A DNA stretch of 46,973 nt from a virus (IMGVR_UViG_3300046671_000016:1-46973); one strand, 5' to 3'. Counted from the stretch's first letter, positions 8,395 through 41,403 are shown. Program-made: numbers and translations. Notes: generated by a model not told the origin, from the sequence alone.

Positions 8395-9842
8395 TCGCCG
8401 ACAGCCTCAAGGCAGTCCACGCGGCCATAGCCTCGCTCGGTGCGGCCTTAGACGCGCTGGCGAATGACATAGCGGCCATTCCAGCCGTTCCCGTTGTGCC
8501 GCCGGTAGTCATCCCGCCCATAGCCACCACGGCGAGCGCGACGTTCTCCAGCACGACGGCGGAGATCCCCAACCCTGAGCGCGGGCTGTCGAAGCAGTGG
8601 CAGAACCTGAGCGACCTGACGCCTGCTTGGCTGACCGCTCATCACGACGCTGGCTACCGTCTGGTGATGCACCGGCAGCTTCTGGCTCCCTACTGGAACG
8701 TCGCCACGTTGCCCCAGTCGTTCCTCGATGCGCTCAACGCCGGTGCCGCTCTGCACCGCTCCACAGGCACCAAGATCGTGATGCAGTTCAGCTACGACAA
8801 TGTGGGTGGCGGCCCGGAGCCCACGCTGAGCACGATCCTCGGACATATCGCGCAGCTCAAGCCATTCTTCACGGCTAACGCGGACGTGATAACGGCTGTG
8901 CACTCCGGCTTCATCGGCACCTACGGCGAGTGGGCATTCTCGACCGAGCCCAGCGTAGGCAACCCGACGCCCTCGGCTGCGACGCGGATAGCCGTGCGTG
9001 ACGCGCTCTATGCCGCCGTGCCCGCCGGCATTCAGATCGGCTTCCGATCACTGGCGGATCTGCGGACGTGGTATCCAACGCCGCTGACCGCGACTCAAGC
9101 CTTCAGCAGCATCAACCAAGCCCGGTCGGGCGTTCACAACGACTGCTTCCTCAACAACAACGACGACGCCGGGACGTACTGGGCACTTGGAGTATCGCCC
9201 ACTGGCAGAACGCCAGCGGACAACATCTTCCGCGCCTACCATCAGCAAATCTCCCCCTTCACCACCACGGGCGGGGAGAACTGCGGCGACGGCCAATTCA
9301 AGGCATGCTCCGACGTGCTGACCGACGGCGCGCTCTACCACTGGCGCTATCTGCGCGATGACTGGGGCACGATCTTCCACGATGGCTGGAAGGCTCAAGG
9401 GTGTTACCCGCAGATCAAACGGTCGTTAGGGTATCGGTTCCAACTGGACGCGATCTCGCATCCAACAAACGCCGCCTCCGGAACCTCCGTAGACTTTGCC
9501 ATCGACCTTCGTAACATCGGCTGGGCGAGAATGTTCAGCCCGCGCAAGCTGGTCGTGACGTTGGCGAACAAAGTGACAGGAGTTGTGATCGCAGGCAGCG
9601 CGGGCGATATGAGGTTCTGTTCATCGCAAGCAACCTACTCAACGCGCTTCGTCGTGCCCGTAGCCGTCCCGAGCGCAGGCACCTACGATGTCTACGTCAG
9701 CATGCCCGACATCTGGCCGGGGACGAAAGACAAGGCCGATTACGCCGTGCGATTCGCCAATGCCGATGACGCGGCCAAAGGCCAAGCGTGGGACGCGGCT
9801 AACTTCAGATTCAAGATGGGGACGACGCTGACGAGCGTGTGA
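8391..9842 (+). CDS. DUF4874/DUF4832-like glycoside-hydrolase-fold protein
   Basis: PNPERG, GFIGTYGEW, R.GVHNDCFL, GGE, LGYRF, N.GWA and Y.VRFAN motifs. Confidence 0.75.
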   Translation: MIADSLKAVHAAIASLGAALDALANDIAAIPAVPVVPPVVIPPIATTASATFSSTTAEIPNPERGLSKQWQNLSDLTPAWLTAHHDAGYRLVMHRQLLAPYWNVATLPQSFLDALNAGAALHRSTGTKIVMQFSYDNVGGGPEPTLSTILGHIAQLKPFFTANADVITAVHSGFIGTYGEWAFSTEPSVGNPTPSAATRIAVRDALYAAVPAGIQIGFRSLADLRTWYPTPLTATQAFSSINQARSGVHNDCFLNNNDDAGTYWALGVSPTGRTPADNIFRAYHQQISPFTTTGGENCGDGQFKACSDVLTDGALYHWRYLRDDWGTIFHDGWKAQGCYPQIKRSLGYRFQLDAISHPTNAASGTSVDFAIDLRNIGWARMFSPRKLVVTLANKVTGVVIAGSAGDMRFCSSQATYSTRFVVPVAVPSAGTYDVYVSMPDIWPGTKDKADYAVRFANADDAAKGQAWDAANFRFKMGTTLTSV

Positions 9843-15141: not shown

Positions 15142-15342
15142 GGTAATTGAGGATACGCGCCGTGGAGCAGAGACAGCTCGCCAGGCTGGAAGCCCGACAG
15201 ATTCGCCGTCCAGCGCGAGAAAGTTTGCCAGAGTTGCGGCGTTAGGAAGCACCTGGAGCAATTCTCCTTTAGTGGCTCACGCTGCAAGGTATGCGACAAG
15301 GCGATGCGCGACAAGTGGATCAAGACGGGAAGGCGCGCGTGA
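15134..15342 (+). pseudogene. Probable frame-disrupted CxxC...CxxC zinc-finger gene
   Basis: Frame 15151-15342 encodes KVCQSCG.RKHLEQF...CKVCDK and ends in GTGA coupled to the MTase start, but has no in-frame start upstream of the finger. Confidence 0.4.
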
Positions 15343-16043
15343 AGCCGTTGGCGATTGACCTCTATTGCGGTCTCGGCGGCTGGACTGAAGGGCTGCTCGC
15401 GGAGGGTTATGACGTGATCGGCTTCGACATTGAACGCCACGATTACGGTGCTGGGGGCTATCCTGCGCAACTTGTGCTCCAAGATGTGCTGACGCTGCAC
15501 GGCTCGCAACTTAAGGATGCGGCTCTCATCGTCGCCAGTCCGCCGTGTCAGGGCTACAGTTATCGAGCAATGCCGTGGAGTCGCGCAAAGGCTCTGCCAC
15601 CGCCAGACAACTCTCTCTTTGAGGCGTGCTTTCGCATCCAGCGCGAGGCAATAGAAGCCGCTGGGCATTTCATTCCGCTTGTAGTTGAGAACGTGCGCGG
15701 GGCGCAGAAGTGGATCGGGCGGGCGCGATGGAACTATGGCAGTTATTATCTGTGGGGTGATGTGCCGGCGCTGATGCCGATGGGTGGAAAGGCAAAAACT
15801 CCTGGTCGCAATATGAATTTTGGCACTACTCACAAATGGGGCACGCACAATATGGGTACGGCAGATGAAATTCATAGAGAACTCAGTGGAATTAAACAGG
15901 GCGGCGATAACGCTTCACAACCCTCTATTTCACGTTTGACTAGCTCAAAAAGCAACGCCCGCAAAGCCGCCTCTGCCATGATCGCGAAGATCCCCTTCGT
16001 TTTGGCGCGGCACATTGGAGCGGTCTGGAAACCATATGCGTAG
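15339..16043 (+). CDS. Short C5-cytosine DNA methyltransferase
   Basis: Motif I IDLYCGLGG, motif IV SPPCQGYS, motif VI VVENV. Confidence 0.8.
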   Translation: MKPLAIDLYCGLGGWTEGLLAEGYDVIGFDIERHDYGAGGYPAQLVLQDVLTLHGSQLKDAALIVASPPCQGYSYRAMPWSRAKALPPPDNSLFEACFRIQREAIEAAGHFIPLVVENVRGAQKWIGRARWNYGSYYLWGDVPALMPMGGKAKTPGRNMNFGTTHKWGTHNMGTADEIHRELSGIKQGGDNASQPSISRLTSSKSNARKAASAMIAKIPFVLARHIGAVWKPYA

Positions 16044-27727: not shown

Positions 27728-29620
27728 ATGCCAGCGACGGTATCCCATGCGTTGTCGATGACAACGCCCAATGATGCCGCCTTCGAGAATCAGCCGCAGC
27801 ACTGGAATTCATCGCACCTCGTCACATTCAATGCCGTCGGGTCTGAAATATCCGGCGGATTCGCCAATGCGGGTGGTGTTACCTTTGGCTATGACGGCAC
27901 GAACGTAACAGCCGTCGCCCCAGCGGGCGCTCCAAGTCCGATCAATTTCTCTGCCGGGACGACCTCAAGCAATATAGGCTCGGTTGTCTTTAGTAACTCA
28001 AACGGTGTCAGCTTTGGCCTGAACGGCAGCACCATCACCGGGACGGTAGCGACGAACTATCAGAGTCAAGGGGCGTACCTCACGACGGCAGCCCTATCCG
28101 GGGATACGACAAAGTATGCGGGCGTAGGCGAAACCGTAGGAACCGTTGCAGGTACGGATGTCGCCATTACGATGAATACGGACGGGTTGAGCCTTCTCTA
28201 CCCGAAATACATCACGACCGCGATGGCCTCGAATAGGGGCAGCGATTTTGTGCAGGCTACGGCGGCATTTGCCGGAACGAGCGCCTCCGGGACGATTGCG
28301 AGCAACGGCATCTCGGTTAGCATCGGGCCGTATATCACCACGGGAGCATTAAGCAATCACTCGCACGGCGTGACCGCAGCCAATGGTGGCTTCAACTTCC
28401 AGACGCTTTCGTTCTCGAATGCAAACGGCATCAGCTTTGGCACGAGCGCCGGCTCTGCGATCACCGGAAGCCACAATGCGATTACCACTGGACGGGCTTC
28501 GACCGACGCCATCGGCCTAAACACCGCGCAGTCGAATGTCACGTGGACGGTCAATTCTAGCGGCTTGAGCCTCGATGCTCGCGGGTATGCCGGGACTGGC
28601 ACTTCCGCCACGAATGCCTCGATCACGCTCAATAGTGTCGGGCTTGCGATCTCGGTCGCAGCGCCCGGTGCTGGCGTGGCGGCGGGTGTAAGTAATACGG
28701 GTAACACGCTCGGGAATACCGGGACAGTCTCATCCGGGACGCTCGTATTTGCCGCGTCTGGCGGCATCACCGCGAGCGAATCGACAGCAGCCGGTCAGTC
28801 CACCATCTGGTACTCAGCGCCCGCGACCTCCAGCATCGTCGGAACGAGCGGCCTGAGTATTTCAACGGCTGGCAGCACGATTTCAGCCCTGCCCGTAGCC
28901 TTGAGCGTATGGGACCCCTACCCGATCATCACCGGGACGGCTGTTTCGAGTCATGCGCCAGCGTCGTTTTGGTTCAGCAAGATGATCCTCAACTGGCCGG
29001 TGGTGATGAGCTACGCAAACGTGCTGAAATCCTTGAGCGTAGGCGCGCCGGGGATGAGTTCGCAGAACTCCTCGCTCACGAACAAGTTTTCCTACTCGCA
29101 CGGTCTCACGCTATTCACGCGCAACGGGTTTGGCGCCAATTCCAGTCAGATGAGCCAGTGGACGACAGCGAGCTTCGGCATGACAGGCTCACTGTCGCAG
29201 TCCTCAAGCTCCGCAAGCGTCGCGTTGAGCTGGGTGACGAATAGCACGGGCGGCACCACATCGTTTAGCACGACGAGCGGGTCGAATCTGTGGACGAATT
29301 TCTTCACCGGAATGCAGATGTTCCGCATTCCGCTCGTGACGACGCTGACACCGGGCGAGTATTTCATCGGGCAGGCACATTCGAGCACGACAGCGACGGT
29401 GGGCAGCAACTTCACGCTCTTTAGCGTGAGTAACCTGCATATCGCGCCGCAGTCGAACACATTTGCAACGATCACGAGCAGCGGTTCACTGGCCTTCAGC
29501 AGTCCAGAGGGTCACGGGGTGGGAGTGGCTTCAGCTGTCACAACCAATAATACGATGGCGATGTCTGTGATTTCAGCTGGGACACAGAACTGGTGGTACA
29601 TGAACTTCAGCAACACTTAA
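27728..29620 (+). CDS. Ser/Thr/Gly-rich fibre-like structural protein with internal repeats
   Basis: Repeats FANAGGVTFG, VFSNSNGVSFGLNGSTIT and SFSNANGISFGTSAGSAIT; almost no charged residues. Confidence 0.75.
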   Translation: MPATVSHALSMTTPNDAAFENQPQHWNSSHLVTFNAVGSEISGGFANAGGVTFGYDGTNVTAVAPAGAPSPINFSAGTTSSNIGSVVFSNSNGVSFGLNGSTITGTVATNYQSQGAYLTTAALSGDTTKYAGVGETVGTVAGTDVAITMNTDGLSLLYPKYITTAMASNRGSDFVQATAAFAGTSASGTIASNGISVSIGPYITTGALSNHSHGVTAANGGFNFQTLSFSNANGISFGTSAGSAITGSHNAITTGRASTDAIGLNTAQSNVTWTVNSSGLSLDARGYAGTGTSATNASITLNSVGLAISVAAPGAGVAAGVSNTGNTLGNTGTVSSGTLVFAASGGITASESTAAGQSTIWYSAPATSSIVGTSGLSISTAGSTISALPVALSVWDPYPIITGTAVSSHAPASFWFSKMILNWPVVMSYANVLKSLSVGAPGMSSQNSSLTNKFSYSHGLTLFTRNGFGANSSQMSQWTTASFGMTGSLSQSSSSASVALSWVTNSTGGTTSFSTTSGSNLWTNFFTGMQMFRIPLVTTLTPGEYFIGQAHSSTTATVGSNFTLFSVSNLHIAPQSNTFATITSSGSLAFSSPEGHGVGVASAVTTNNTMAMSVISAGTQNWWYMNFSNT

Positions 29621-29649
29621 CATGATAACTATAAAGCCTAGGAACTATC

Positions 29650-30030
29650 ATGCCTACTTGTGTTCATTTGAATTCCATAGACGGATGTCTCCCGACTTAT
29701 GATGCAACGCCGACGCAAATTCTCGCAGTGCCGTGCTTCGAACCGTATGTCACCATGCGCGTTGAAGTGCAGATTATTGCGAGAAGCATGAATAACGTCG
29801 ATGCCAAAACATGGCAGCAGCTGTTGCTGATCGACAAGACATCGGGCGCGACGCCTACGCAGGCTGCAAATATCAGTCTCATGAACCCCGCCGGGACGCT
29901 TGGCGCTGCCGCGTGGACGTTCAGCGTGACGTTCGACGCGAACCACGTCTTCCTCAATGTCATCGGGCAGGCCGCTTCGACGATCAACTGGATGGCTTCT
30001 GCCTGGGGCATGCAGGTTATGGGAGACTGA
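29650..30030 (+). CDS. Small beta-rich putative structural protein
   Basis: AGGA RBS; context. Confidence 0.65.
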   Translation: MPTCVHLNSIDGCLPTYDATPTQILAVPCFEPYVTMRVEVQIIARSMNNVDAKTWQQLLLIDKTSGATPTQAANISLMNPAGTLGAAAWTFSVTFDANHVFLNVIGQAASTINWMASAWGMQVMGD

Positions 30031-30756
30031 TTGGCTCAACCAGTCATCGTTCAAACGAGCGCTCGCCAACGGTATCTCAACGTTGGCGGAGACTCTGTGT
30101 TCGGCAGCAATGTCGCGTCAGGGAATACATCCATTGTCCTTTGTGGCACACATGACCGTTCCAACGCTACGGTTCCGACGGATACCCTCGGTACGGTTTA
30201 TGTGCTGGACGGCTCTTATTTGGAAACGACATTCAGCGGATGGGCCATTGCTGTTTATCGAGGCGTATTCGGTTCAAGTGGGGCCAACACTGTCACTGTG
30301 CCGCGCGCTTCAGCCACTGAAATTAATGTTGTCTGCCACGAACTGAGTTCGATGGCTGCGTCGCCTCTGGACATAACTCCAACTACCACTGGGACGACTG
30401 CAAGCAATTGGGGAACTGCATCGGATACAGTTACTTCCACTGGCACGCTCTCCCAAGCCGATGAGATTGTCTATACCCTTGCAATGGGTCGTTGTGATCA
30501 GACCATTGCAACTGGCTTTGCTACGCTCCCACCTCCGAGCGGATTTACGTCGATTGGAACGGCGTATTTAGGAGATGGCACTACGACCGGCTCTCCTTGT
30601 CATTTCGCCTATAAACTCGTGTCTGCAACAACGGCCGTCGCCCCTGTGTGGGCTGCCACAGAAACGCAGACCAGTCTACAACCATTCGCCGCTATGGCGA
30701 CGATCACTTACAAAGGATTGGCTACTTCGGGGAATATCGCATGGATCAAAGCGTAG
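30031..30756 (+). CDS. Putative structural protein; stand-alone paralogue of the N-domain of 1473..2756
   Basis: GGAG RBS, TTG start; long identical peptide blocks shared with 1473..2156. Confidence 0.8.
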   Translation: MAQPVIVQTSARQRYLNVGGDSVFGSNVASGNTSIVLCGTHDRSNATVPTDTLGTVYVLDGSYLETTFSGWAIAVYRGVFGSSGANTVTVPRASATEINVVCHELSSMAASPLDITPTTTGTTASNWGTASDTVTSTGTLSQADEIVYTLAMGRCDQTIATGFATLPPPSGFTSIGTAYLGDGTTTGSPCHFAYKLVSATTAVAPVWAATETQTSLQPFAAMATITYKGLATSGNIAWIKA

Positions 30757-31457
30757 GAAGGCACAATCAGGATATACAGAAGTCCACCGCCCGCATCATC
30801 GAAGGCGGTTCGTGGAAGCGCCAGCGGGTGGTCATGCTCATCCCAGCGGGCGAGATGATCCCGACGAAGGTGTATCTGAACCATTGCTCGCTCATCTTCC
30901 CGCCGAATCAGCCCGCATACAGGCTTGCGACCGAAGATATGGAAGTAGGCGAGGCGTTCAGTACCTCAATTCAAGGGATACTGGATCATCCAGAGTTCAG
31001 CAAGTGGGAATTCCTGCTTACGATCGAGCACGACAACCTCGCCCCGAGCGACGGCATCGTCAAGCTCATCAAGCGCATGGAAGCGCATCCTGAATTCTCG
31101 GCTATCGGCGGACTCTACTGGACGAAGGGCGAGGGTGGGGTGCCGCAGATTTGGGGAGACCCGAAAGATCCGCTCGTCAATTACCGCCCGCAACCGCCCG
31201 ATCCGAGCGGAGGCTTAGTCGAGTGCTGCGCGACCGGCATGGGCTTCACGCTCTGGCGACTCAAGATGTTCAAGGACGCACGCCTTCGCAAGCCGTGGTT
31301 CAAGACAGTCGCAGATCACACAGGCGTCGGCACCCAAGACCTGCACGCTTGGAGTGACTTCAGGAAATACGGATACCGCTGCGCGATTGATTGCTCATGC
31401 CTTGTCGGGCATTACGACCATGCCGGGGTCTTTGGTCCGGCAAAAACTGTTTGGTAA
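30741..31457 (+). CDS. GT-A fold (GT2-like) glycosyltransferase
   Basis: VMLIPA, FLLTIEHDN (DxD-equivalent), IGGLY, ATGMGFTL, QDL, AID...VGH. Confidence 0.75.
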   Translation: MDQSVGRHNQDIQKSTARIIEGGSWKRQRVVMLIPAGEMIPTKVYLNHCSLIFPPNQPAYRLATEDMEVGEAFSTSIQGILDHPEFSKWEFLLTIEHDNLAPSDGIVKLIKRMEAHPEFSAIGGLYWTKGEGGVPQIWGDPKDPLVNYRPQPPDPSGGLVECCATGMGFTLWRLKMFKDARLRKPWFKTVADHTGVGTQDLHAWSDFRKYGYRCAIDCSCLVGHYDHAGVFGPAKTVW

Positions 31458-31467
31458 AGGACACCAT

Positions 31468-31665
31468 ATGTTCAAACGTGGCGATTTGGTAAAGCACAAG
31501 ATAGGGAAAGACACCTGGATGGTAGAAGAGGTGAAGGAAGAGAAATCATGGCCTTGGAGTAAGCCGCGCACGATAGTTACCGTTCTGCACAGGATTCCCA
31601 ATGGTAGCGGACTCGATTATGGAAATAGTGGGCGCTACGCTCCTGATGAATTAGTCCCCGCATGA
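31468..31665 (+). CDS. Small SH3-like (YodC/DUF2158-like) protein
   Basis: AAGGA RBS; MFKRGDLVKHK...MV...Y.PDEL. Confidence 0.55.
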   Translation: MFKRGDLVKHKIGKDTWMVEEVKEEKSWPWSKPRTIVTVLHRIPNGSGLDYGNSGRYAPDELVPA

Positions 31666-32207
31666 AACGCAAACTCAAGCCCGTTGAAATCGCCGCGCCT
31701 TTGCGCTTGGACCTCGGCTGCGGGAAAAATAAGCAGCCCGGCTTCATCGGAGTCGATGTTATCAAGTTCGACGGCGTGGATACGGCGCTAGATCTTGCTA
31801 AACCGTGGCCGTGGGCCAATGACTCCGTAGAGCAGGTTCACAGCTCCCACTTCCTTGAACATCTCGGAAGCGAACAGCGAATTCACTTTTTCAATGAACT
31901 TTGGCGCGTTCTACGCAAGGACGCAAAGGCCACGATCATCACTCCGCACTGGCGTTCCGGGCGTGCTTATGGAGACCTGACGCACCAGTGGCCTCCGGTG
32001 GTCGAATTCTTCTGGTATTACCTCGACAAAAACTGGCGCGCTGCCAATGCGCCTCACTTGGCTCTGAACTGCGATTTCGCATGCAGTTGGGGCTACAACA
32101 TCGCGGCACCGTGGACATCTAGGAACCAGGAAGTGCAGGGGTTCGCGCTGAATCACTATTCCGAAGTCGCGCAGGACATGATTACGACCGCGACAAAACG
32201 TGGCTAA
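31662..32207 (+). CDS. Class I SAM-dependent methyltransferase (type 11-like)
   Basis: RLDLGCG, GVD, WPW..DSV...SSHFLEHL, ELWRVL, DLTH. Confidence 0.88.
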   Translation: MKRKLKPVEIAAPLRLDLGCGKNKQPGFIGVDVIKFDGVDTALDLAKPWPWANDSVEQVHSSHFLEHLGSEQRIHFFNELWRVLRKDAKATIITPHWRSGRAYGDLTHQWPPVVEFFWYYLDKNWRAANAPHLALNCDFACSWGYNIAAPWTSRNQEVQGFALNHYSEVAQDMITTATKRG

Positions 32208-32610
32208 TTTCGCCTATCAGGTAACGAATTTCGCCTATCAAGGCGCGGGCAAGTTCGCCTATCAAGGATCGACGGATGCTGTTTCTACTCCGCCGGGCGT
32301 CAAGCATCACAGACCTCCGGTCATTCGCTTCAGAGAATTCGAGAAGCGCGAGGACATCGCTGCATTTCTCAAGGCGCAGCTCAAACTGCGGCACCCAGCT
32401 TCCGCTTTCGAGATTGAAGTCGAGCCTGCGCTGGTTGAATCTCAGCGCGAAGCGCGGGCAGAACGCGAGGCTGAAATGCGAGCGAACGCACAGCAGGCCG
32501 AACGCGAGAGTTTGATTTTACGAGAAAAAGAGCGTACAAGGCGCATTACGGACACCAACAATGCCATTTTGTCAATCCTCTTAGCGAGCTACGAAGACGA
32601 TGAGTCCTGA
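32200..32610 (+). CDS. Hypothetical protein with N-terminal FAYQ x3 repeat and coiled coil
   Basis: ANFAYQ VTNFAYQ GAGKFAYQ. Confidence 0.7.
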   Translation: MANFAYQVTNFAYQGAGKFAYQGSTDAVSTPPGVKHHRPPVIRFREFEKREDIAAFLKAQLKLRHPASAFEIEVEPALVESQREARAEREAEMRANAQQAERESLILREKERTRRITDTNNAILSILLASYEDDES

Positions 32611-32887
32611 ACAAGAATTGCAGCGCGCCGAGCAAGCCCGTCAGGTGATGGAAACTCCGCTCGTCAGGGAAACGCTTGAATTGATGGAGCGCGAGATCGT
32701 CGAGGCATGGATCGCCTGCCCCGCGCGCGATACCGAAGGCCGGGATTGGCTCTGGCGGCAAATTGTATCCACCCGCAAGTTCAAAGACACGCTGCGCGGC
32801 GTCATGGAGTCAGGCAAGCTCGCGCAGGCACGGTTGAAAGAGAAGCAAACGCTCGCCGAGCGTGCGCTTAACTTAGTCAGACTATAG
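32600..32887 (+). CDS. Small helical head-assembly-region protein
   Basis: Position directly before the scaffold gene; W...PARD.EGR.WLW...GKLA. Confidence 0.75.
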   Translation: MSPEQELQRAEQARQVMETPLVRETLELMEREIVEAWIACPARDTEGRDWLWRQIVSTRKFKDTLRGVMESGKLAQARLKEKQTLAERALNLVRL

Positions 32888-32898
32888 GAGAATAGAAA

Positions 32899-33909
32899 AT
32901 GCCAGACGCAGGCCAAGCGGCAGCACCCGCAGCCACGGACATCGTACAAAGCATTCAAGCGAAATTGAATCTGGAGCAGCCGACAGAGCCACAGGCTACC
33001 GCTCCAGCAACACCCGCTGAAGGCGAACCTCAACCGGTGCAGGAGCCGGAAGCGACGCCCGAGGCACCAAAGGTCGAAGGGGAAGACGCGCCTAAAGAGG
33101 ACGCTCCGGTGGCGACCGAAATCCCACTCGACCAGTTAGAAGCCATCGCCCTCGAAGTCACCGTAAAGGGCGAGGACGGCAAGGATGTAGTCGAGAAGCC
33201 TACCGTAAAGGAGCTTCGTGAGGGCTACATGCGGCAGAAGGATTACAGCAGGAAGACGGCGGAAGTCGCCAGGCAGCGCGAGGAAGTGGGCAATCAAGTG
33301 CGCCAGGCCGTAGATGGTGAACGAAGCCAGTATGCGAAACAACTCCAGGAACTGCAAAACGTCCTTTTGGAGACCGTAGCCCCGGACTTGAAGGACGTGA
33401 ACTGGAACGATCTGGCGAAGAACGACCCATTCAAGTATGTGGAACTTCGCAATCGCGCCGATCAGATTACAAGCACGCTCTCGAAGATCCAGCAGCAACA
33501 GACGGAATTGACCGCCAAGCAGCAGACCGAGCAAAAGGAGGCGAATCTCAAAGTCGCCGCCAAGACGCTCGAAAAACTGTCAGCGGAGATCCCCGGCTGG
33601 AGCCCCACTTTGTATCAATCGTTGCTCAAGTCCGGCGAAGCGGTCGGATACAAGCACGAAGAAGTGGCGAATTGGATCGACGATAGAGCCATCAGACTGC
33701 TACACAAAGCCTACCTGTATGACCAATTGAAGTCTGACAAACCCGCTGCGGACAAGAAAGTTGTCGTCGCACCTAAGGTTGTGAAACCAGGAGCGGCAAG
33801 CACGGCGACGCAGGCTCAGTCTCGTTACGGAGAGGCGATGAAGCGGTTGGGAAATTCCGGCCGAATTGAGGATGCAGCGGACGCAATCCGCGCCAAACTC
33901 GGCCTTTAG
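32899..33909 (+). CDS. Capsid scaffolding protein
   Basis: Acidic Pro-rich N-terminus; EL..GYMRQKDYSRKT.E; coiled coil; D.R...LLHKA..YDQL; precedes the capsid gene. Confidence 0.88.
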   Translation: MPDAGQAAAPAATDIVQSIQAKLNLEQPTEPQATAPATPAEGEPQPVQEPEATPEAPKVEGEDAPKEDAPVATEIPLDQLEAIALEVTVKGEDGKDVVEKPTVKELREGYMRQKDYSRKTAEVARQREEVGNQVRQAVDGERSQYAKQLQELQNVLLETVAPDLKDVNWNDLAKNDPFKYVELRNRADQITSTLSKIQQQQTELTAKQQTEQKEANLKVAAKTLEKLSAEIPGWSPTLYQSLLKSGEAVGYKHEEVANWIDDRAIRLLHKAYLYDQLKSDKPAADKKVVVAPKVVKPGAASTATQAQSRYGEAMKRLGNSGRIEDAADAIRAKLGL

Positions 33910-33921
33910 CAGGAGAGTGTT

Positions 33922-34887
33922 ATGGCAGTACCAGCAGGAGCGTTTCAGACGTTCCAAAGCATAGGCAACAGGGAAGACCTCGAAGACGAGATATACCAAA
34001 TCTCGCCCGTCGAGACCCCCTTCCTCACGATGGCGAAGCGCACGGAAGCGACAGCCGTCTTCCACGAATGGCAAACGGACGCGCTGGCAACAGCGGCAGC
34101 GAACAGGCAAATAGAAGGTGACGACGCGGCTAACGCTACGTCCACGCCGTCTGTGCGTCTGGGTAACTATCAGCAGATTTCAAGCAAATTTGCAATCGTT
34201 ACCGATACGGAGAACGCAATCAAGAAAGCGGGTCGAGGCAACGAAATGTCCTATCAGATCGCCAAGCGGTTGGGTGAGCTGAAGCGGGAGATGGAACTTG
34301 CCCTGACTCAAAATCAAGGTTCATCGGCTGGCAGCGCTACCGTAGCGCGGTCTTCGGCCTCCGTTGAAGCCTGGATTTTCAGCAATCGCACTTCGCTTGG
34401 AACGGGCACGTCGCAGACGACTCCGGGATTCATTTCCGGTACGGTTGCGGCTCCGACCGATTCCACGGTGACGGGCGCGTTCACGGTAGCATCGTTGAAG
34501 ACGATCATCGCGGCAGCTTGGACCGCTGGCGGGTCTCCTGGGATCATCATGGTGGGCGGCACTCAGAAGCAGGTTGTATCTGGGTTCGCCGGAATCGCCA
34601 CGATCTACCGGGAAGCTGGCAGCACGTCAAAGGGCACGGCGATCGTTGGGGCGGCGGATCTCTACATTTCAGATTTCGGAGAGCACCGCGTTGTCCCCAA
34701 TCGTTTCAGTCGCAACCGCACGGCTTTAGTCCTCGATATGGACTACTGGGCGGTGTCCTACCTGCGGAAGGTTTCCCAAAAGGAAATCGCTCGCACTGGC
34801 GGGGCGCAGAAGCGGTATCTGGACGTGGAGTTCGGTCTGGTATCGCGCAACGAAGCGGCGAGCGGGAAGGTTTCCGACTTGACGTAA
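33922..34887 (+). CDS. Major capsid protein (DUF5309 / SU10-type HK97 fold)
   Basis: GNREDL.D.IY.ISP.ETPF, HEWQTD.L, N..QI..K, ELKR.ME, D.Y.SDFG..VVPNRF. Confidence 0.92.
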   Translation: MAVPAGAFQTFQSIGNREDLEDEIYQISPVETPFLTMAKRTEATAVFHEWQTDALATAAANRQIEGDDAANATSTPSVRLGNYQQISSKFAIVTDTENAIKKAGRGNEMSYQIAKRLGELKREMELALTQNQGSSAGSATVARSSASVEAWIFSNRTSLGTGTSQTTPGFISGTVAAPTDSTVTGAFTVASLKTIIAAAWTAGGSPGIIMVGGTQKQVVSGFAGIATIYREAGSTSKGTAIVGAADLYISDFGEHRVVPNRFSRNRTALVLDMDYWAVSYLRKVSQKEIARTGGAQKRYLDVEFGLVSRNEAASGKVSDLT

Positions 34888-34894
34888 CCATGAG

Positions 34895-34922
34895 GGCTGG
34901 GGGCGAAAGCTCCCAGCTTTTC
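34895..34922 (+). terminator. Intrinsic terminator or attenuator after the capsid gene
   Basis: Stem GGCTGGGGGC-GAAA-GCTCCCAGCT followed by a short T run. Confidence 0.75.
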
Positions 34923-34925
34923 TAG

Positions 34926-35267
34926 ATGGCTGAGAGATTGCTGAGTGTTGATCCGCTGACCGGGATCAGCACGTTTCACGACTATGACGAGGATACCGAC
35001 CAGACGATCATCCGCTACACGGGTGACTGCGAGCCTACGCTGGAAGCGAACAAGGCGCGCGCCAACGATGCGGAGTTCAGTGCAGATGGCATCAGGAGCG
35101 ACATGTGGCTTTTTGCAAGCATCCCTGCGGCTCTTCAGTGCAAGTGGCTGATCGAGGAAGGGCTGGATGTTTATAAAAAGGAACATAGCGACAGATTGTT
35201 CAGGAAACTGAACGATCCCGAGTACAAGTATCTGAAGTGCACGACGGGGAGGCATATCGTTAAATGA
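34926..35267 (+). CDS. Conserved small protein downstream of the capsid gene
   Basis: D.EP.LE.NK...ASIP...W..EG...LNDPEY.YL. Confidence 0.75.
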   Translation: MAERLLSVDPLTGISTFHDYDEDTDQTIIRYTGDCEPTLEANKARANDAEFSADGIRSDMWLFASIPAALQCKWLIEEGLDVYKKEHSDRLFRKLNDPEYKYLKCTTGRHIVK

Positions 35268-36670
35268 ACGCGCTTCTCACCGAACGCCTGCAGGAGGTTA
35301 CGGACGAGCCTGTCAAGGAAATGCCCAAGCAGTTGGCGATTGCCGAACTGCTGCGACAGAAGGGTGAGTTGGACGAGGCAATGAGAATTTGTAATGAGTT
35401 CCTGAATGGGAACTTCGGCGATATTGGCGCTATTGCCCTCGCATCGCACATTCTTATTGACTCTGGAAGGCTCGGGCTGGCGAACGCCTTGCTCAAGCTG
35501 GCGGTCAAGATCAATCCAGAGTCTTCGGTACTCTGGTCTAATCTCGGGCTGACATTTCAGGAAGGCTCAGACCTTGCCGAGGGCGAGGCTGCATTCATCA
35601 AGGCGATCAACCGCGATCCGCGCAACGCCTTTGCGCTGAACAACCTCGCGCAGCTCTACGTCAACACGGCCCAGCCGCAGAAGGCGATCAACTGCGCGAC
35701 GAAGGCGATTGAGCTTGATCCTTCGCTGCCAGAAGCGCGGTACAACCTGGGGCTGGCGAACCTTCAGCTCGGTAACTGGAAGGAAGGTTGGGACGGGTAC
35801 GAATACAATCTCGGAGCGCATCGGCATCGAAGGGAGCGCGTCTATGGCAAAGTACCACGCTGGGATGGAACGAAGGGCAAGACTGTTATCGCGTATGGCG
35901 AACAAGGACTCGGAGATGAGATTAGCTTCGCCTCGTGCATCCCTGATCTGCTACGGGAGTGCCGCGTCGTTTTGGAGTCCGACAAGCGGCTGGATGCACT
36001 GTTCCGGCGCTCGTTCGGCGTCCCGACTTATGGCACGCGTAAGGAAGCCGGGATAGGCTGGGTCAAGGAACACAAGCCCGATGCGAGCGTTGCGTTCGGG
36101 TCGCTACCTCACTTTTATCGTAATAGCACCGAGAGCTTCCCCGGCACGCCATACCTGAAAGCCGATCCTGAGAGGCGGCTGATGTATCGCGCGCTGCTGG
36201 ACTCACTCGGCCCGCAGATGAAGGTCGGCCTAGCGTGGACTGGCGGGCTGAAGAACACCGGCAAGGAACGCAGATCAGTGGAGCTGAAAGACTTAGCTCC
36301 GATCCTCGCTCAAGATGCTATCTTCGTCAGCCTGCAGTACATGGACGCGCCAGAGGTTGCCGGGACGAAGGTGCATCACTGGCCGTTCGCTGTGCAGACG
36401 CAGGACTACGATGATACGGCGGCGCTCGTGGCGGAACTCGATCTGGTGATATGTGTAACCACGGCGGTCGTTGACCTGTGCGGTGGGCTGGGTATGCCCT
36501 GCTGGGTACTGACGCCTAAGGCTCCTATGTGGCGCTACGGTCTGAGCGGTGAGGCGTATGTGTGGTCTAATGCCGTGCGGCTCTACAGGCAGACGAACGA
36601 GTGGATTCACCCGATCAGCGAGATTGCGCGTGATTTGAGAGAAAAGGCGGCGGCATGGGCCTCACGGTAG
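35264..36670 (+). CDS. TPR-repeat + GT-B (GT9-like) glycosyltransferase
   Basis: TPRs (WSNLG, ALNNLA, ARYNLG); GW..YE, EQGLGDEI.F, VGLAW.G, FVSLQY, DTAALVAELDLVI.V.TAV..L.G.LG. Confidence 0.88.
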   Translation: MNALLTERLQEVTDEPVKEMPKQLAIAELLRQKGELDEAMRICNEFLNGNFGDIGAIALASHILIDSGRLGLANALLKLAVKINPESSVLWSNLGLTFQEGSDLAEGEAAFIKAINRDPRNAFALNNLAQLYVNTAQPQKAINCATKAIELDPSLPEARYNLGLANLQLGNWKEGWDGYEYNLGAHRHRRERVYGKVPRWDGTKGKTVIAYGEQGLGDEISFASCIPDLLRECRVVLESDKRLDALFRRSFGVPTYGTRKEAGIGWVKEHKPDASVAFGSLPHFYRNSTESFPGTPYLKADPERRLMYRALLDSLGPQMKVGLAWTGGLKNTGKERRSVELKDLAPILAQDAIFVSLQYMDAPEVAGTKVHHWPFAVQTQDYDDTAALVAELDLVICVTTAVVDLCGGLGMPCWVLTPKAPMWRYGLSGEAYVWSNAVRLYRQTNEWIHPISEIARDLREKAAAWASR

Positions 36671-37317
36671 CCGGTCTGACGGTCATCTCGAAGTACCCAT
36701 CGCGCAGGGTGCTATCGCTCGGCTATCCGGACATCATCGCCACGGGCGAGTTCATCAAGACGCTTTTCAACGTCGAGCCGCAGACCTTCGTTCCGAACGG
36801 CGGCTGGCACGGCGTCGATTACGAGCTGCCTGAGAGCGTCGAGTTCTTCCGGCTGATCGGTTCAGAGCTGTCCTGCATCGACGTGCACGCGAGCCGAGGT
36901 GTGGAAACGGTCGTGGATCTCAACTATCCGCACGACTTAGGCAAGTTCGACATGGTGATTGATCCTGGCACGGTCGAGCATTGCTTCAACATCGGGCAGG
37001 CGATCATCAATGCGGCTACAGCGGTTGCCGAGGGCGGGGTGATCTTCCACACACCTCCGATGACCATGATCAACCACGGCTTCTACAACCTGAACCCGAC
37101 GCTATTCTTCGACTTCTACATGCAGAATGGCTGGGACGTGGAGATGGCGATGGGGGTGAAAGACGGGGCGCTATTCGAACTGCCGTCGCATCAGCGGGTC
37201 ATTATCCCAGCCGAGTCGAGCATCTACTTCGTAGCGCGACGGACGAACATGAATCCGTTGTCGTTCCCTGTTCAGTATAAGTATCAAGTTAACCCGGATT
37301 TGAAGGTGATGCATTGA
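36655..37317 (+). CDS. SAM-dependent methyltransferase-like protein
   Basis: VLSLG, CIDV, DLN, FDMVIDPGTVEHCFNI.QA, NHGFYN.NPT.F. Confidence 0.8.
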   Translation: MGLTVAGLTVISKYPSRRVLSLGYPDIIATGEFIKTLFNVEPQTFVPNGGWHGVDYELPESVEFFRLIGSELSCIDVHASRGVETVVDLNYPHDLGKFDMVIDPGTVEHCFNIGQAIINAATAVAEGGVIFHTPPMTMINHGFYNLNPTLFFDFYMQNGWDVEMAMGVKDGALFELPSHQRVIIPAESSIYFVARRTNMNPLSFPVQYKYQVNPDLKVMH

Positions 37318-37925
37318 CCTACAAGAACGTAGATGGCTTCGTTTTCCCGGACAGCGATCTTGACTGCGCTCCGGCGATGTTTGCTACCGTTGGCGATCTT
37401 GAGCTGTACTACCCGTTCGTGCAGAGCTTCGATGTGGCGGTGCAGGCTGGCGGCAACGTAGGAATCTTCCCGGCGAAGATGGCCGAGCGGTTCAAGTTCG
37501 TCTATACCTTCGAGCCAGATGCGATCAACTTCAACTGTCTCTGTCGGAACGCGCCACTGGAGAACATCATCAAACTGCAGGCTGCGCTAGGCGAGAAGCA
37601 CGGACTCGTCGGCATCCAGAAGGTTCCGCAGAACGTCGGGGCGAACTATGTATCTGGGGCAGGCAACGTCCCGACGCTCAAGATAGACGATCTCAACCTC
37701 AATACCTGCGACATGCTGATGCTGGATGTTGAGGGGATGGAACTGGCGGCGTTGAAAGGCGCGCTGGGCACGATCATGGCCTTTCATCCGTGCATCGTGG
37801 TCGAGGAAAAGGACTTGGGCAACCGTTACGGCTACCCGCATGGGGCCATCGCGGAGTTTCTGGCCTCCATCGGCTATCGTGAAGTTCACCGCAAGCACCG
37901 CGATGTGGTATACACATGCGGGTAG
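37314..37925 (+). CDS. FkbM-family methyltransferase
   Basis: VQAGGNVG, VYTFEPD..NF, AALG, IDDL.L, LDVEG.E..AL.GA. Confidence 0.9.
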   Translation: MTYKNVDGFVFPDSDLDCAPAMFATVGDLELYYPFVQSFDVAVQAGGNVGIFPAKMAERFKFVYTFEPDAINFNCLCRNAPLENIIKLQAALGEKHGLVGIQKVPQNVGANYVSGAGNVPTLKIDDLNLNTCDMLMLDVEGMELAALKGALGTIMAFHPCIVVEEKDLGNRYGYPHGAIAEFLASIGYREVHRKHRDVVYTCG

Positions 37926-38620
37926 TCGGCTTTCTCTACGTCGATTGCGGCAAGCCCGAGTATGCGGCGATGGCGGAGAACATGGTTCATTGGGTGCGCG
38001 AGGCGATGCAGGATGCCTATATCGTGCACATGGCCTCGCCCAACACGGTCAGTATCGCTGGCGTCAGTCGGCGCATCAACCGCGAAGTCACGCAAGAGAA
38101 CGCGCCGCTCATGATCTATCGCCTGGAGCACTTGGCGAATTTCCCCTACGAGCAGATGTTACTGCTGGATGTGGACGTGGTGATGAACCGCGATCCGTGG
38201 AAGGTCTTCGACACACCGTTCGACATGGCGTTCACGACACGTGACAGGGACGCGATTGTTGATGGCGAATCAATCGCAAGGAAAATGCCGTACAACATCG
38301 GCGTCATGTTCAGCCGCAGCCCTGCGTTCTGGCGCGAGGCGCATGCCTACGTCAAGACCCTTCCGCCTGACCATCAGCAATGGTGGGGCGATCAACTGGC
38401 AGTCAAGCATCTGGCCGACAGCGGGCGCTACCGCATCCATGAAATATCGAGCGATCCGTACAACTATTCCCCCGACCTTGCGGACGAGGATGTAACCGAC
38501 AAGTTCATGGTGCACTATAAGGGCGCGCGCAAGGCGCGGCTATTCGACAAGTTCCCATCCATCCTGCGTCGCCTGAACGGGCCGCAGGGCTATCACTATC
38601 GCAGCGAAAGGGCCGCATGA
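37916..38620 (+). CDS. GT-A fold glycosyltransferase (GT8/GT77-like)
   Basis: LLLDVDV (DxD), YNIGVMF, WGDQ.A, YNY, VHYKG.RK. Confidence 0.82.
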   Translation: MRVVGFLYVDCGKPEYAAMAENMVHWVREAMQDAYIVHMASPNTVSIAGVSRRINREVTQENAPLMIYRLEHLANFPYEQMLLLDVDVVMNRDPWKVFDTPFDMAFTTRDRDAIVDGESIARKMPYNIGVMFSRSPAFWREAHAYVKTLPPDHQQWWGDQLAVKHLADSGRYRIHEISSDPYNYSPDLADEDVTDKFMVHYKGARKARLFDKFPSILRRLNGPQGYHYRSERAA

Positions 38621-39255
38621 GCATTTCAACCTACGCCGAGTTATCCACGGCAATCGTGAACTGGCTCGATGTCCCCGCTGCATCGTTCCCAAGCGGCGGG
38701 ATTAGCGACCTGATAACCGTGGGCGAGAAGCGCCTGTTCCGCGAAGCTCGGTCGCGCGACATGGAGTACGCACTGAGCGACACAATCGCAGCAGGAGTCA
38801 TCGCGCTCCCTGCGAGCTACGTATCGCTCAAGTTTGCCTATATCAATGGCTCGCCGATCTCACGCTTGGAGCGTCGCCCGGCTGAGTGGATCTATCAGCA
38901 ATATCCGATTCGCTCGTCCACCGGAAGGCCGAAGTTCATCGGGCGCGACTCAACGAACTTCGTCTTTGGCCCGTATCCAGACTCGGGATATACGGTGAAA
39001 GGCATCTACTACCGCCGTCTGACCGTCATTGAGACAGCGCCGAACGCGCTGTTCTTGGCGAATCCAGACCTGTACTTGTTCGCATGCCTCGCCGAGTGCG
39101 AGCCGCTGATCGGACGCGACGCCCGCATTACCTTGTGGGAGGCGAAATACCAGAAGATTCTCAGCATGATAAACGGCGAGGATCGTGCCGAAGACGCTTC
39201 CGGCGGCGGTTTGCAGATGCGTGTATCGGACAACCTGCAAATGGTGTCGCGATGA
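38617..39255 (+). CDS. Head-tail adaptor / connector protein
   Basis: MSISTYAEL..AI.NWL, GRP, GPYPD..Y....YY, PDLYL.A.L.E. Confidence 0.82.
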   Translation: MSISTYAELSTAIVNWLDVPAASFPSGGISDLITVGEKRLFREARSRDMEYALSDTIAAGVIALPASYVSLKFAYINGSPISRLERRPAEWIYQQYPIRSSTGRPKFIGRDSTNFVFGPYPDSGYTVKGIYYRRLTVIETAPNALFLANPDLYLFACLAECEPLIGRDARITLWEAKYQKILSMINGEDRAEDASGGGLQMRVSDNLQMVSR

Positions 39256-39893
39256 ACCTCCAAGTGTATATCGGCACCGATTCGCGCCAGCCCATTGCGG
39301 CGCAGGTTCTGATGCACTCTATCTGCGCCCGCGCCTCCTGGCCGATCAGCATTACTCCGCTGGTGCTCTCGCAGCTTCCAATGAAGCGGCGCGGGTTGAC
39401 GGAATTCACTTTCAGCCGCTACATGGTGCCGTTCCTGTCAGAGTACAGAGGCCGCTCGATCTTCATGGACGCTGACATGTTATGCCTCGCCGATGTGTGC
39501 GAACTGGTAGAGCTTGCCGATCCGCTCGCTGCCGTATCGGTCGTGAAGAATAAGCTGCGCTTTGAATGGCCGAGCCTGATGGTGTTCAACAACGCGATGT
39601 GTATGAAGCTACAGCCTTCATGGATCGACGACGAGAGCACCGCGCCGCAGTCGCTGTCGTGGGCGAAGCAGGTAGGCGAGCTACCGTCCGAATGGAATCA
39701 CATCGTCGGATACGACGCTCCGCGCACAGATGCCAAGATCGTCCATTTCTCCGCTGGTATCCCCTGCTGGCGCGAGACGCAGGACTGCGAGTATGCCGCC
39801 GAATGGCACAGGGAACGAAAGCTTTGCAACTCCTCCGTGTCGTGGGAGGACTTGATGGGCCGCAGCGTACATCGGGAGAAGGTACTTGGCTAA
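39252..39893 (+). CDS. GT-A fold (GT8-like) glycosyltransferase
   Basis: VYIG.D.RQ, TEFTFSR..VP, IFMDADML (DxD), W.SLMVFN, LP.EWN..VG, IVHF..G.P; start revised to ATG 39252. Confidence 0.85.
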   Translation: MNLQVYIGTDSRQPIAAQVLMHSICARASWPISITPLVLSQLPMKRRGLTEFTFSRYMVPFLSEYRGRSIFMDADMLCLADVCELVELADPLAAVSVVKNKLRFEWPSLMVFNNAMCMKLQPSWIDDESTAPQSLSWAKQVGELPSEWNHIVGYDAPRTDAKIVHFSAGIPCWRETQDCEYAAEWHRERKLCNSSVSWEDLMGRSVHREKVLG

Positions 39894-41403
39894 AGCGCAG
39901 CGCGTATCGCGCCCCGACGAGCCGAATCTAGTGGTGCCGCTCGCCACGTCGATTAATGAGCGAGGCATTACCGGCTTCACGCATTCGATCACGAACTCGG
40001 AAGACCAGAGGAAGCTCAACTGTTTCTATGAACTTTCTAAAAATCCGATGACCGGCAAAGGATCTCTGACGCTGGTGGTAAGGCCCGGCGTTACGATCGA
40101 CGCATTCACTTACGGCGTATCCGGGCAGGCGTCTTATCTTGTTCTAGATGTTACTGGGAGCCCAGCGCCGGTAGCTGACTTCGTAGTGAATATCTCAGGC
40201 GGGAATATTATAAGCACAACAAGTTCTACCGCCGATACGGTAGTGGCTGCGGGGTTATACCTGCCTGCGTATATAGATACGACATCCCTTAGCAATGTTC
40301 GGCAAGCGTGCCTTCAATTACGGAAGGTTACGAACGCCATAGATCAGCGAGTATTTTTCAAGCCTCTTGTCGGCGGAGCGTGGACGGAGATTGTCGATGC
40401 AGATTTCACGACTCCTGGACACGTCGGGAAGATGGAGCACCTTGACGGTTATGCGTTTATTCTCGCCGATACCGGACTAATATGGAGTTCAGACGTTAAT
40501 AGCCTTGCGAACTGGACTTCGACGAGTTTCTTGGCGAAGCAGATCAAGCAGGATTTTTCTGTCGGTCTCGCGCGCCTCGCTAATCAGATCATCGCCTTCG
40601 GTGACAATACAGCGGAGATGTTCTACAACGCTGGCAATACGACCGGGAGTCCACTAGGACGGCTGCCGCACTTGCATCAGAGGATCGGCTTGATAAATAC
40701 CACTATCGTCGGCGGGACTCACTATTACGCCACGCTTGAGAATCGCATCTACTTCGTCGGGCGGCGCTCAGGCGGTAGCGGCGGGCCTTCGATAGGAGCG
40801 TTCGCCTATGACGGAGCGCGCTTCGAGAAGATCAGTACGCCCTACGTTGACAAGATACTGTCCGAGAAATACACGGCACTCTATTCTGTCAACGCAATCG
40901 GCTTTCACGGTCAGAGCGCCATCGCATTCTGCTGGACAGCTCCAGGTGCAGCGACGCAGCAATGGCTGATGTTCTTCCCTGACTGGAAGGAATGGTTTGA
41001 ATGGAGCAGCACCGTATTTGCCCCGGTCAATAGCGGCACATTCTATCTCGGCGTCGGCTCGAATCAGCACAAGCTCTATAAGTTTGCCTCATCCGATAAC
41101 TGGCAGGATAACGGCACATCCTACCAATGGTTCACCCAGTTCAAGCTGCCGAACAAGGGGACAGTGCGCCGGTTCATGCCGATGTACGGTGTGGAAGCAG
41201 ATACCGCGCGTACCACGAACAATCTGACTGTTGAGATCAGCACGAACGACTGTGTGACGTTCTCCACTCTGGGCACCATTGATCTGACGCAAGACCGTAA
41301 AATACTATTTCGCGGTGGTTCGTTCAGAACGGCGCATATTAGACTCGGAAGCACGAATGGCGCTGAAACACGGATTCAGAACTTCCTCGCCCGGATCGAC
41401 TGA
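39886..41403 (+). CDS. Tail hub / DNA-stabilisation protein (P22 gp10-like)
   Basis: RPG start motif, LDGY.F, FG..T.E.FYN.G, KIST..VD..L; position after the adaptor. Confidence 0.8.
   Translation: MAKAQRVSRPDEPNLVVPLATSINERGITGFTHSITNSEDQRKLNCFYELSKNPMTGKGSLTLVVRPGVTIDAFTYGVSGQASYLVLDVTGSPAPVADFVVNISGGNIISTTSSTADTVVAAGLYLPAYIDTTSLSNVRQACLQLRKVTNAIDQRVFFKPLVGGAWTEIVDADFTTPGHVGKMEHLDGYAFILADTGLIWSSDVNSLANWTSTSFLAKQIKQDFSVGLARLANQIIAFGDNTAEMFYNAGNTTGSPLGRLPHLHQRIGLINTTIVGGTHYYATLENRIYFVGRRSGGSGGPSIGAFAYDGARFEKISTPYVDKILSEKYTALYSVNAIGFHGQSAIAFCWTAPGAATQQWLMFFPDWKEWFEWSSTVFAPVNSGTFYLGVGSNQHKLYKFASSDNWQDNGTSYQWFTQFKLPNKGTVRRFMPMYGVEADTARTTNNLTVEISTNDCVTFSTLGTIDLTQDRKILFRGGSFRTAHIRLGSTNGAETRIQNFLARID

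Follow-up and report, generated by a model that had tools for sequence, protein, structure and literature searches.

The window analysed here, IMGVR_UViG_3300046671_000016, spans the complete 46,973-bp IMG/VR record of an uncultured podophage. It ends in direct terminal repeats, and its late head-tail operon carries four genes for glycosyltransferases and three for methyltransferases. We found that these genes belong to two modules, which are separately inherited and common to hundreds of uncultured phage contigs. Module B (35264-39893) is anchored by a glycosyltransferase with a tetratricopeptide-repeat (TPR) arm, called TPR-GT below. Its gene is inherited vertically and belongs to the core of the capsid module across a large clade of uncultured phages. 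Module A (27728-32207) is a mobile cassette, in which a Ser/Thr-rich fibre gene is joined by genes for a GT-A glycosyltransferase and a class-I methyltransferase. On balance, our analysis suggests that these two soluble enzyme sets glycosylate virion proteins in the cytoplasm while the late genes are expressed. The enzyme genes of Module B are the following.

35264..36670, + strand: TPR-GT, with a TPR part (about residues 20-185) and a GT9-fold GT-B domain (about residues 200-465)
36655..37317, + strand: probable class-I methyltransferase of 220 aa, cargo (Atlas structure and feature matches)
37314..37925, + strand: FkbM-family methyltransferase, cargo (PF05050, TIGR01444, phrog_8156)
37916..38620, + strand: GT-A 'Nucleotid_trans' glycosyltransferase, GT77-like, cargo (PF03407, D-V-D motif)
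39252..39893, + strand: GT8-like glycosyltransferase, cargo (PF01501 in orthologues, DxD and His, WbbM)

The TPR-GT has a bipartite build of a TPR arm and a C-terminal GT-B domain, on which Pfam, the structure model and the fold matches agree. Pfam TPR matches lie over residues 60-180, and the sequence profile of the TPR part matches human OGT at 7e-48. The model (pLDDT 86.5) shows helices over residues 22-184 and an alpha/beta region after them. The C-terminal domain has the GT9 fold, as its two Rossmann-like domains superpose on WaaC and WaaF. Its match to 3tov has Z 16.8 and rmsd 3.4 over 249 aligned residues (model residues 201-467), and those to WaaF (1psw), WaaC (2h1f) and the protein heptosyltransferase TibC have Z 16.2, 15.3 and 14.8, respectively, the last with rmsd 3.3 over 237 aligned residues. 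At whole length the model matches the bacterial OGT homologues 2jlb (Z 17.3, 364 aligned) and 5djs (Z 17.2). The window TPR-GT does not match PF01075, and the matches of 13 of 21 orthologues are weak (best E 7e-4); a PDB profile search with the C-terminal domain found nothing, and no GT41 sequence signal was seen in the protein. The catalytic face is conserved across the TPR-GT alignment, where the glycine-rich loop GEQGxGDE is invariant and DYDD nearly so.

The TPR-GT occupies a constant place in the capsid module. Of 7,999 candidates scored, 2,760 are homologues, and the best 119 of them (self excluded) are 51-67% identical to the window protein. A scan of viral contigs with the lone window sequence gave nothing, and the alignment-based motif scan of IMG/VR succeeded, with at least 590 of 600 stretches confirmed as TPR-GT; the tool estimates that about 1,100 IMG/VR stretches match two TPR-GT motifs. 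We kept the 80 best TPR-GT loci and searched them with the window proteins by tblastn at E <= 1e-4. The gene order in these relatives is constant: capsid, a 113-aa gene, TPR-GT, variable genes and adaptor. The capsid gene precedes the TPR-GT in all 70 loci with the capsid in view, and the adaptor lies downstream in all 52 loci where it was detected. Pairwise identities of the TPR-GT and the capsid protein are correlated (Spearman 0.55, n=54), and none of 500 label permutations reached this value. The same comparison with capsid identity gives 0.57 for the portal, 0.58 for the 113-aa gene and 0.31 for GT8, and the mean identities in these comparisons are 42% for the TPR-GT, 39% for the portal and 34% for the adaptor.

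The slot between the TPR-GT and the adaptor is a hypervariable glycan island, which holds zero to nine exchangeable glycosyltransferase, methyltransferase and sugar-nucleotide genes. Homologues of the window's capsid, GT8-like, 113-aa and adaptor genes were found in 70, 58, 55 and 52 of the 80 loci, those of the FkbM and first (31662-32207) methyltransferases in 11 each, those of the 220-aa and GT77-like genes in five each, and that of the GT2-like gene in one, where absences give lower bounds because many loci are fragments. Over the 52 loci that show both edges, the slot ranges from no open reading frame (ORF) in four loci to nine in locus L062. We scanned 99 of the 120 slot ORFs at E <= 0.01, leaving out 21 from near-duplicate loci. 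They include 18 GT8 and five stand-alone GT9 glycosyltransferases, eight FkbM and 25 other class-I methyltransferases, and one each of a HAD phosphatase, a nucleotidyltransferase, a DegT-type sugar aminotransferase and an HNH endonuclease. The remaining 39 have no match, and several of these are tblastn homologues of the GT8-like, GT77-like and 220-aa genes of the window.

Two further observations concern this slot. The nine slot ORFs of L062 (11407-17724) include two class-I methyltransferases, the HAD phosphatase, the nucleotidyltransferase and the DegT-type aminotransferase, and look like a small nucleotide-sugar pathway within a capsid operon. HNH/homing endonuclease genes stand directly behind the TPR-GT in L036 (4383-4739) and L085 (10472-10948), and such endonucleases may promote the exchange of genes at this place.

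Among the cargo enzymes of the window, the FkbM protein matches PF05050 (4e-12, 47 bits against a cut-off of 22.7) and TIGR01444 (2e-15, 57.7 bits against 37.7), and the GT77-like protein matches PF03407 (2e-5, 25 bits against 22). The 220-aa protein has no Pfam match, and its Atlas model, with TM 0.82 to a Methyltransf_23 cluster, suggests a probable class-I methyltransferase. PDB sequence searches with the 220-aa and GT77-like proteins returned nothing useful. The GT8-like protein of the window scores 17.5 bits for PF01501, under the cut-off of 24.3, while its orthologues pass with 30-35 bits. Its D73 and D75 (DxD) and the C-terminal metal-binding H165 are invariant in 23 sequences, and its PDB profile matches the GT8 domain of WbbM (1e-3) and also the GT8 enzyme 5gvv. 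Its gene follows the adaptor gene in the window and precedes it in most relatives.

Module A has a different history and consists of the following genes.

27728..29620, + strand: probable fibre, a 630-aa repeat protein rich in Ser/Thr/Gly/Ala/Asn (composition, repeats)
29650..30756, + strand: two small ORFs of 126 aa and 241 aa (27% S+T), between the fibre and GT-A genes
30741..31457, + strand: GT-A fold glycosyltransferase ('GT2-like'), 238 aa
31662..32207, + strand: class-I S-adenosylmethionine-dependent methyltransferase, partner of the GT-A enzyme (Methyltransf_11, phrog_6636, PDB 3dli)

The protein at 30741-31457 takes a GT-A fold in a model of moderate quality (AF2, pLDDT 69.6, with the first 60 residues poor). 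The best match of this model is STIV A197, with Z 15.0, rmsd 3.1 and 14% identity over 170 of 191 residues; SpsA follows with Z 12.0, and nearly all among the 50 matches listed are nucleotide-sugar enzymes of the GT-A type. The window protein has no Pfam match and its single sequence found nothing useful in the PDB. Weak matches to PF00535 were seen for six of 22 orthologues (best E 0.014), and a sequence match to SpsA (E 0.02) spans the DxD region. The residues at the DxD position are E96-H97-D98, which are invariant and not the canonical DxD; GTQDL is also invariant and a VGH[YFWL]D-like motif is conserved. No relation between this family and the GT8 family was found by hhalign. The partner at 31662-32207 is borderline for Methyltransf_11 (4e-4, 21.3 bits against a cut-off of 21.2), has a DLGCG motif, and matches phrog_6636 (8e-12) and, by PDB profile, 3dli (1e-4).

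The GT-A gene, its partner and a fibre-like gene are linked across otherwise different phages. We found 4,956 homologues of the GT-A enzyme, the best 120 of which are 71-87% identical, far tighter than the capsid protein. The scan of IMG/VR confirmed 319 of 338 stretches, and 80 loci on contigs of 4 to 160 kb were kept. In 79 of these 80 loci the GT-A gene has a homologue of the first methyltransferase at most about 1.7 kb away, usually adjoining it. A TPR-GT homologue and the window's capsid type each occur in one of the 80, and the pair of GT-A enzyme and methyltransferase therefore lives outside the clade of Module B. A protein rich in S, T, G, A and N (at least 330 aa, at least 55% of these residues, ending within 2.6 kb of the GT-A gene) stands upstream in 58 of the 61 loci with more than 3 kb of upstream DNA, against 11 of 494 long ORFs in the control set of Module B loci. 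The ~60-aa repeat of the window fibre recurs in 39 of 80 GT-A loci; not one of the 80 TPR-GT loci has it.

The 630-aa protein itself has 30% S+T, 4% charged residues and repeats of ~40-45 residues, and no Pfam or PHROG match was found for it. It is a probable fibre and may be the acceptor of the GT-A enzyme. Pfam gave no match for 41 of 46 STGAN-rich proteins, DUF3060 for one, and, for four, an N-terminal Mtd_N, the domain of a receptor-binding fibre. The ~60-aa unit at residues 245-312 of the fibre is 86-96% identical in phages such as L103, L113, L129 and L146; outside this unit their fibres differ and the phages are otherwise divergent. An HMW1C-like N-glycosylation of the fibre was considered and dropped, since the NxS/T sequons of the window protein match the expectation from its composition. 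Homologues of the 126-aa ORF occur in three of 80 loci, and ORFs similar to the two small ones in size and composition stand at the equivalent place in relatives such as L087 and L090. A 103-aa ORF with a GTG start (31354-31665) shares 104 nt with the end of the GT-A gene; none of the 160 related loci has a homologue of it, and it therefore may not be a gene.

The two modules are set among structural genes that all lie on the + strand: small and large terminase, portal, scaffold, major capsid protein (MCP), adaptor and a head-closure or 'stabilization' protein. Judged from sequence, this is an operon of the SU10/LUZ24/phiM5 head-tail type. The genes next to the enzymes are these.

+ strand: portal (PF23899, 1e-204)
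+ strand: scaffold (phrog_3927)
33922..34887, + strand: MCP, SU10 type (PF17236, 2e-86)
34926..35267, + strand: conserved 113-aa protein (phrog_3982), whose stop overlaps the start of the TPR-GT gene
38617..39255, + strand: adaptor, SU10 type (PF24175, 3e-21; phrog_2941)
39886-41403, + strand: head closure Hc3 (phrog_578), called 'hub' in an earlier note on this DNA

Relatives of the last product carry the annotation 'phage stabilization protein'. The nearest GenBank relatives of the capsid protein, at 36-48% identity, include uncultured spring-water phages, Bradyrhizobium phage ppBeUSDA76-2 and Sinorhizobium phage phiM5, and further ones are a Pelagibacter phage and LUZ24-like Pseudomonas phages. 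No near-identical phage DNA was found by megablast against phage sequences. The 113-aa gene stands between the capsid gene and the TPR-GT wherever it was detected (55 of 80 loci). Its product is 32% identical (E 2e-12) to gp15 of phiM5, which precedes the adaptor in that phage, one without a TPR-GT. By synteny, the adaptor is the downstream edge of the cargo slot in the relatives.

The seven enzymes placed by the earlier note are all ORFs at its positions and their assignments stand, those of the GT2-like protein and the 220-aa methyltransferase by fold only. The tight coupling it described within the late operon is borne out by overlaps of 4 to 16 nt at six junctions from 35264 to 39893, namely TPR-GT/methyltransferase, methyltransferase/FkbM, FkbM/GT77-like, GT77-like/adaptor, adaptor/GT8-like and GT8-like/next gene. 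GC3 of the enzyme genes resembles that of the structural genes. All seven enzymes look soluble, as the note had said, with no membrane segment found (the Kyte-Doolittle mean stays under 2.0 over every 19 residues). Our scan of 56 ORFs of the window agrees with it in finding no match to Gtr, sugar-nucleotide or base-hypermodification families, and it matched no integrase or repressor family either. No flippase, Wzy-like or Gtr-like membrane partner, heptose-synthesis gene or DNA polymerase was recognized among these ORFs, and 13 proteins had no match to PADLOC defence families. The ORFs were called mechanically, and many Pfam matches lie under the curated cut-offs. The note's likening of the TPR-GT to protein glycosyltransferases also holds, since it is built like FlmG and the bacterial OGT homologues, and the synteny of related phages that it pointed to revealed a core gene of the capsid module with a hypervariable glycan island behind it.

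Our analysis suggests the following course of events. Binding of a conserved virion protein would fall to the TPR arm, with the capsid protein as the first candidate acceptor, because the TPR part of the flagellin glycosyltransferase FlmG binds its substrate and no fold matches better at whole length than that of the OGT family. The GT9-fold domain may then add the first sugar to that protein, the GT8-like and GT77-like enzymes may lengthen the glycan, and the FkbM and class-I methyltransferases may O-methylate and cap it. The A064R protein of chlorovirus PBCV-1 carries out such extension and methyl capping on a capsid glycan. The acceptor in Module A would be the adjacent Ser/Thr-rich fibre, glycosylated by the GT-A enzyme, with the partner methyltransferase methylating that glycan. 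The outcome would be a methylated glycan coat that varies between strains. The substrate, the sugar and the methyl acceptor named in this scheme are all putative. The single linear pathway of the earlier note, with one primer, three extenders and three cappers, has to be given up: its GT2-like enzyme and first methyltransferase sit in a separate mobile cassette, which travels with a Ser/Thr-rich fibre gene (27728-29620) outside the note's list.

Several observations weigh against virion glycosylation. No acceptor was found. The alignment of 60 capsid proteins from phages bearing the TPR-GT with three from phages lacking it shows no insertion or tail specific to the former. The NxS/T sequons of the window fibre are not enriched (14 observed, 13.4 expected); those of 69 such proteins together are mildly so (1,390 versus 1,121), with 16 of the 69 individually significant. 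The fibre repeat occurs in just 32 of the 61 GT-A loci with enough upstream DNA. Fibre genes are also common neighbours of receptor-related 'moron' genes, so that the linkage of fibre and GT-A genes could reflect a shared receptor specificity rather than a pair of enzyme and substrate. The GT9 and GT8 folds fit the enzymes of the lipopolysaccharide (LPS) core equally well. They are the classic LPS-core families, and such enzymes are peripheral proteins without membrane segments, so that the missing membrane segment on which the earlier note had leaned is compatible with work on the LPS core as well. Neither module is present in any cultured phage of the GenBank set, where the carriers are uncultured spring-water phages only. 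Finally, the loci were found through the enzymes themselves, are mostly fragments and include near-duplicates, and their counts are therefore not independent events.

The enzymes could instead remodel the host envelope, i.e. the LPS core, the capsule or another surface glycan, masking the receptor against superinfection or preventing the adhesion of progeny to debris, with the GT-A/methyltransferase pair accompanying the fibre gene through shared receptor specificity. We consider this unlikely, and it keeps what weight it has because of the points just given on the acceptor, the capsid, the sequons, the LPS folds and the neighbours of the fibre. The GT9 fold fits WaaF and WaaC as well as TibC (Z 16.2 and 15.3 against 14.8), the GT8 profile matches the O-antigen enzyme WbbM, and core glycosyltransferases are generally known to lack transmembrane segments. 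That the GT-A enzyme is so highly conserved in unrelated phages would suit a conserved host acceptor, and four of 46 fibres carry the receptor-binding Mtd_N domain. On the other hand, the TPR arm and the whole-length likeness to OGT indicate a protein acceptor. The anchor belongs to the core genes, keeps a fixed place between capsid and adaptor and co-diverges with the capsid, whereas conversion genes are usually accessory and lie elsewhere. The window ORFs scanned offer neither an integrase or repressor nor a membrane partner of the flippase, Wzy or Gtr kind, and a change made late in the lytic cycle would probably come to the surface too late.

The two modules might also differ in their roles. 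Module A alone would then glycosylate a part of the virion, the fibre, and the TPR-GT, whether catalytic or not, would mainly serve the head-tail joint as a chaperone or assembly factor. TPR domains often serve as assembly scaffolds, and the TPR-GT lies between the capsid gene and the adaptor, beside a small protein that is conserved in phages without the enzyme; in four of 52 loci no second glycan gene separates it from the adaptor. The conserved nucleotide-sugar-binding face, with GEQGxGDE invariant and DYDD nearly so, argues for catalysis however, and the content of the slot, nearly all glycan and methyl enzymes, makes sense only after a first sugar has been placed. We judge this explanation to be improbable.

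Modification of phage DNA bases with sugar or methyl groups to evade restriction is very improbable: phage DNA glucosyltransferases are soluble GT-B enzymes and the window has a C5 cytosine methylase-like gene (15291-16043), but no hydroxymethylase, thymidylate-synthase-like or other base-hypermodification gene was found among the 56 ORFs scanned, the enzyme genes lie in the late structural operon outside the replication module, the sugar aminotransferase and nucleotidyltransferase cargo of L062 suits glycan building, and we know of no TPR arm, GT8, GT77-like or FkbM enzyme in DNA modification, which counts against it too.

Coming back to the glycosylation of virion proteins, we speculate, with less confidence than in that reading itself, that a large, uncultured clade of environmental podophages carries a 'serotype locus' in its capsid operon. 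In this tentative picture, a TPR-GT9 primer as conserved as the portal would start a capsid glycan, an exchangeable slot of transferase, methyltransferase and sugar-nucleotide genes would vary it from phage to phage as bacterial O-antigen loci do, and a mobile cassette of fibre and glycosyltransferase would spread a glycosylated fibre among unrelated phages.

Distant cellular homologues of the TPR-GT, at 29-35% identity, are found in Caulobacter, Sphingomonas and Rhodospirillaceae records. One of them, a 524-aa TPR protein of Caulobacter endophyticus (L178, 5947-7521), is 35% identical to the phage TPR-GT in its best segment; its gene sits between nusG and the gene of ribosomal protein L1, with no glycan gene in view. 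Assigning the host through genome bins was rejected, as nine close TPR-GT matches fall on short contigs in mutually inconsistent taxa, i.e. Opitutaceae, Nitrospira, Sediminibacterium, Pyrinomonadaceae, Nitrososphaerota and Betaproteobacteria, and the bins therefore allow no host assignment. The contigs with TPR-GT in L166-L174 (5-44 kb), binned into metagenome-assembled genomes of unrelated phyla, one of them archaeal, are probably phage contigs that were wrongly binned. The Gram-negative host given in the earlier note is suggested by the hosts of the capsid relatives only.

The relatives have a second variable region, the interval from portal to scaffold. We scanned 52 of its 112 ORFs and 12 had matches, to GDSL esterases, pectate-lyase-like proteins, an endosialidase-chaperone fibre, Laminin_G, CBM, an apiosidase-like hydrolase, GH108, GT9 and a methyltransferase fused to an MptE/Maf-like domain. 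The fusion (L051, 2436-3812) has 458 aa and joins a class-I methyltransferase to an MptE-like domain, PF01973, which we assume to cover the Maf-type flagellin glycosyltransferases. Elsewhere in the window, the C5 cytosine DNA methylase-like gene adjoins a VRR-NUC nuclease and a primase/VapE-type helicase, 8391-9842 encodes a DUF4874+DUF4832 protein, and ORFs in 1-2756 have DUF5123 and IPT/TIG domains. The products with these DUF and IPT/TIG domains are probably tail-associated proteins that act on or bind carbohydrates.

Virion glycosylation by phage or virus enzymes has so far been documented in a few actinobacteriophages and in giant algal viruses. Neither a TPR-linked glycosyltransferase in the capsid module of a phage nor a matching case of virion glycosylation outside actinobacteriophages turned up in full-text searches of a limited library. 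New here are a TPR-guided enzyme of GT9 fold in the core of the capsid module, the adjoining slot of exchangeable glycan genes, and the mobile cassette of fibre and GT-A enzyme, each of them present in very abundant uncultured phages. Thousands of protein clusters exist for both key enzymes, the TPR-GT and the GT-A enzyme. If virion glycosylation is true, sugar coats would rank among the core traits of a very abundant environmental phage group and would diversify within it, which would bear on how phage particles are recognized, adsorb, are grazed and are inactivated in nature, on the evolution of capsid surfaces and on the annotation of 'auxiliary' glycosyltransferases in metagenomes. The modules would also offer two compact candidates for tools of protein glycosylation. 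One is the soluble glycosyltransferase guided by its TPR arm, and the other is the 238-aa viral GT-A enzyme, which comes with a repeat protein as its natural partner.

We compared the modules with known systems. They do not resemble an O-antigen conversion cassette (GtrA/GtrB/GtrC), as no Gtr-family match and no hydrophobic stretch of membrane strength was found. STIV A197, the best fold match of the Module A enzyme, is likewise a small viral GT-A protein; it belongs to an archaeal virus and has DxD where the phage enzyme has E-H-D. The capsid protein of STIV is glycosylated. The OGT enzymes of GT41 (XCC0866 and T. terrenum OGT) share the TPR superhelix and GT-B domain and give the best whole-length matches to the TPR-GT. 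The catalytic domain of the phage enzyme is nearer to GT9 (rmsd 3.4), whereas the OGT matches have rmsd of 9 or more over both domains.

TibC has a GT9-type fold like the TPR-GT and uses it on protein rather than LPS, and the substrates of TibC/Aah autotransporter heptosyltransferases are Ser-rich beta-helical repeat proteins (PMC4358343). Unlike the TPR-GT, TibC lacks a TPR arm and assembles as an iron-bound dodecamer, and sequence similarity between the two is undetectable. In the mycobacteriophages Che8, Corndog and Myrna, phage glycosyltransferases modify virion proteins and shield them from antibodies, according to the relevant section of PMC12363180 (citing Freeman et al. 2023). Those are siphoviruses and myoviruses of actinobacteria, and the same section reports no TPR-anchored enzyme, cargo slot or methyltransferases. 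Chlorovirus PBCV-1 makes a methylated MCP glycan with soluble virus glycosyltransferases and a sugar 2-O-methyltransferase (A064R; PMC7019647). Its gene set is like the one found here by description, in that it combines soluble glycosyltransferases with a methyltransferase. It differs as a eukaryotic giant virus with N-linked glycans and with enzymes fused in one protein.

FlmG, the flagellin O-glycosyltransferase of Caulobacter crescentus, has an N-terminal TPR part and a C-terminal GT-B domain of ~280 residues (PMC7591256). It is described there as soluble and cytoplasmic, and its TPR part binds flagellin, a substrate that is later assembled outside the cell. The phage TPR-GT shares this architecture of TPR and GT-B, and it differs from FlmG by lying in a capsid operon.

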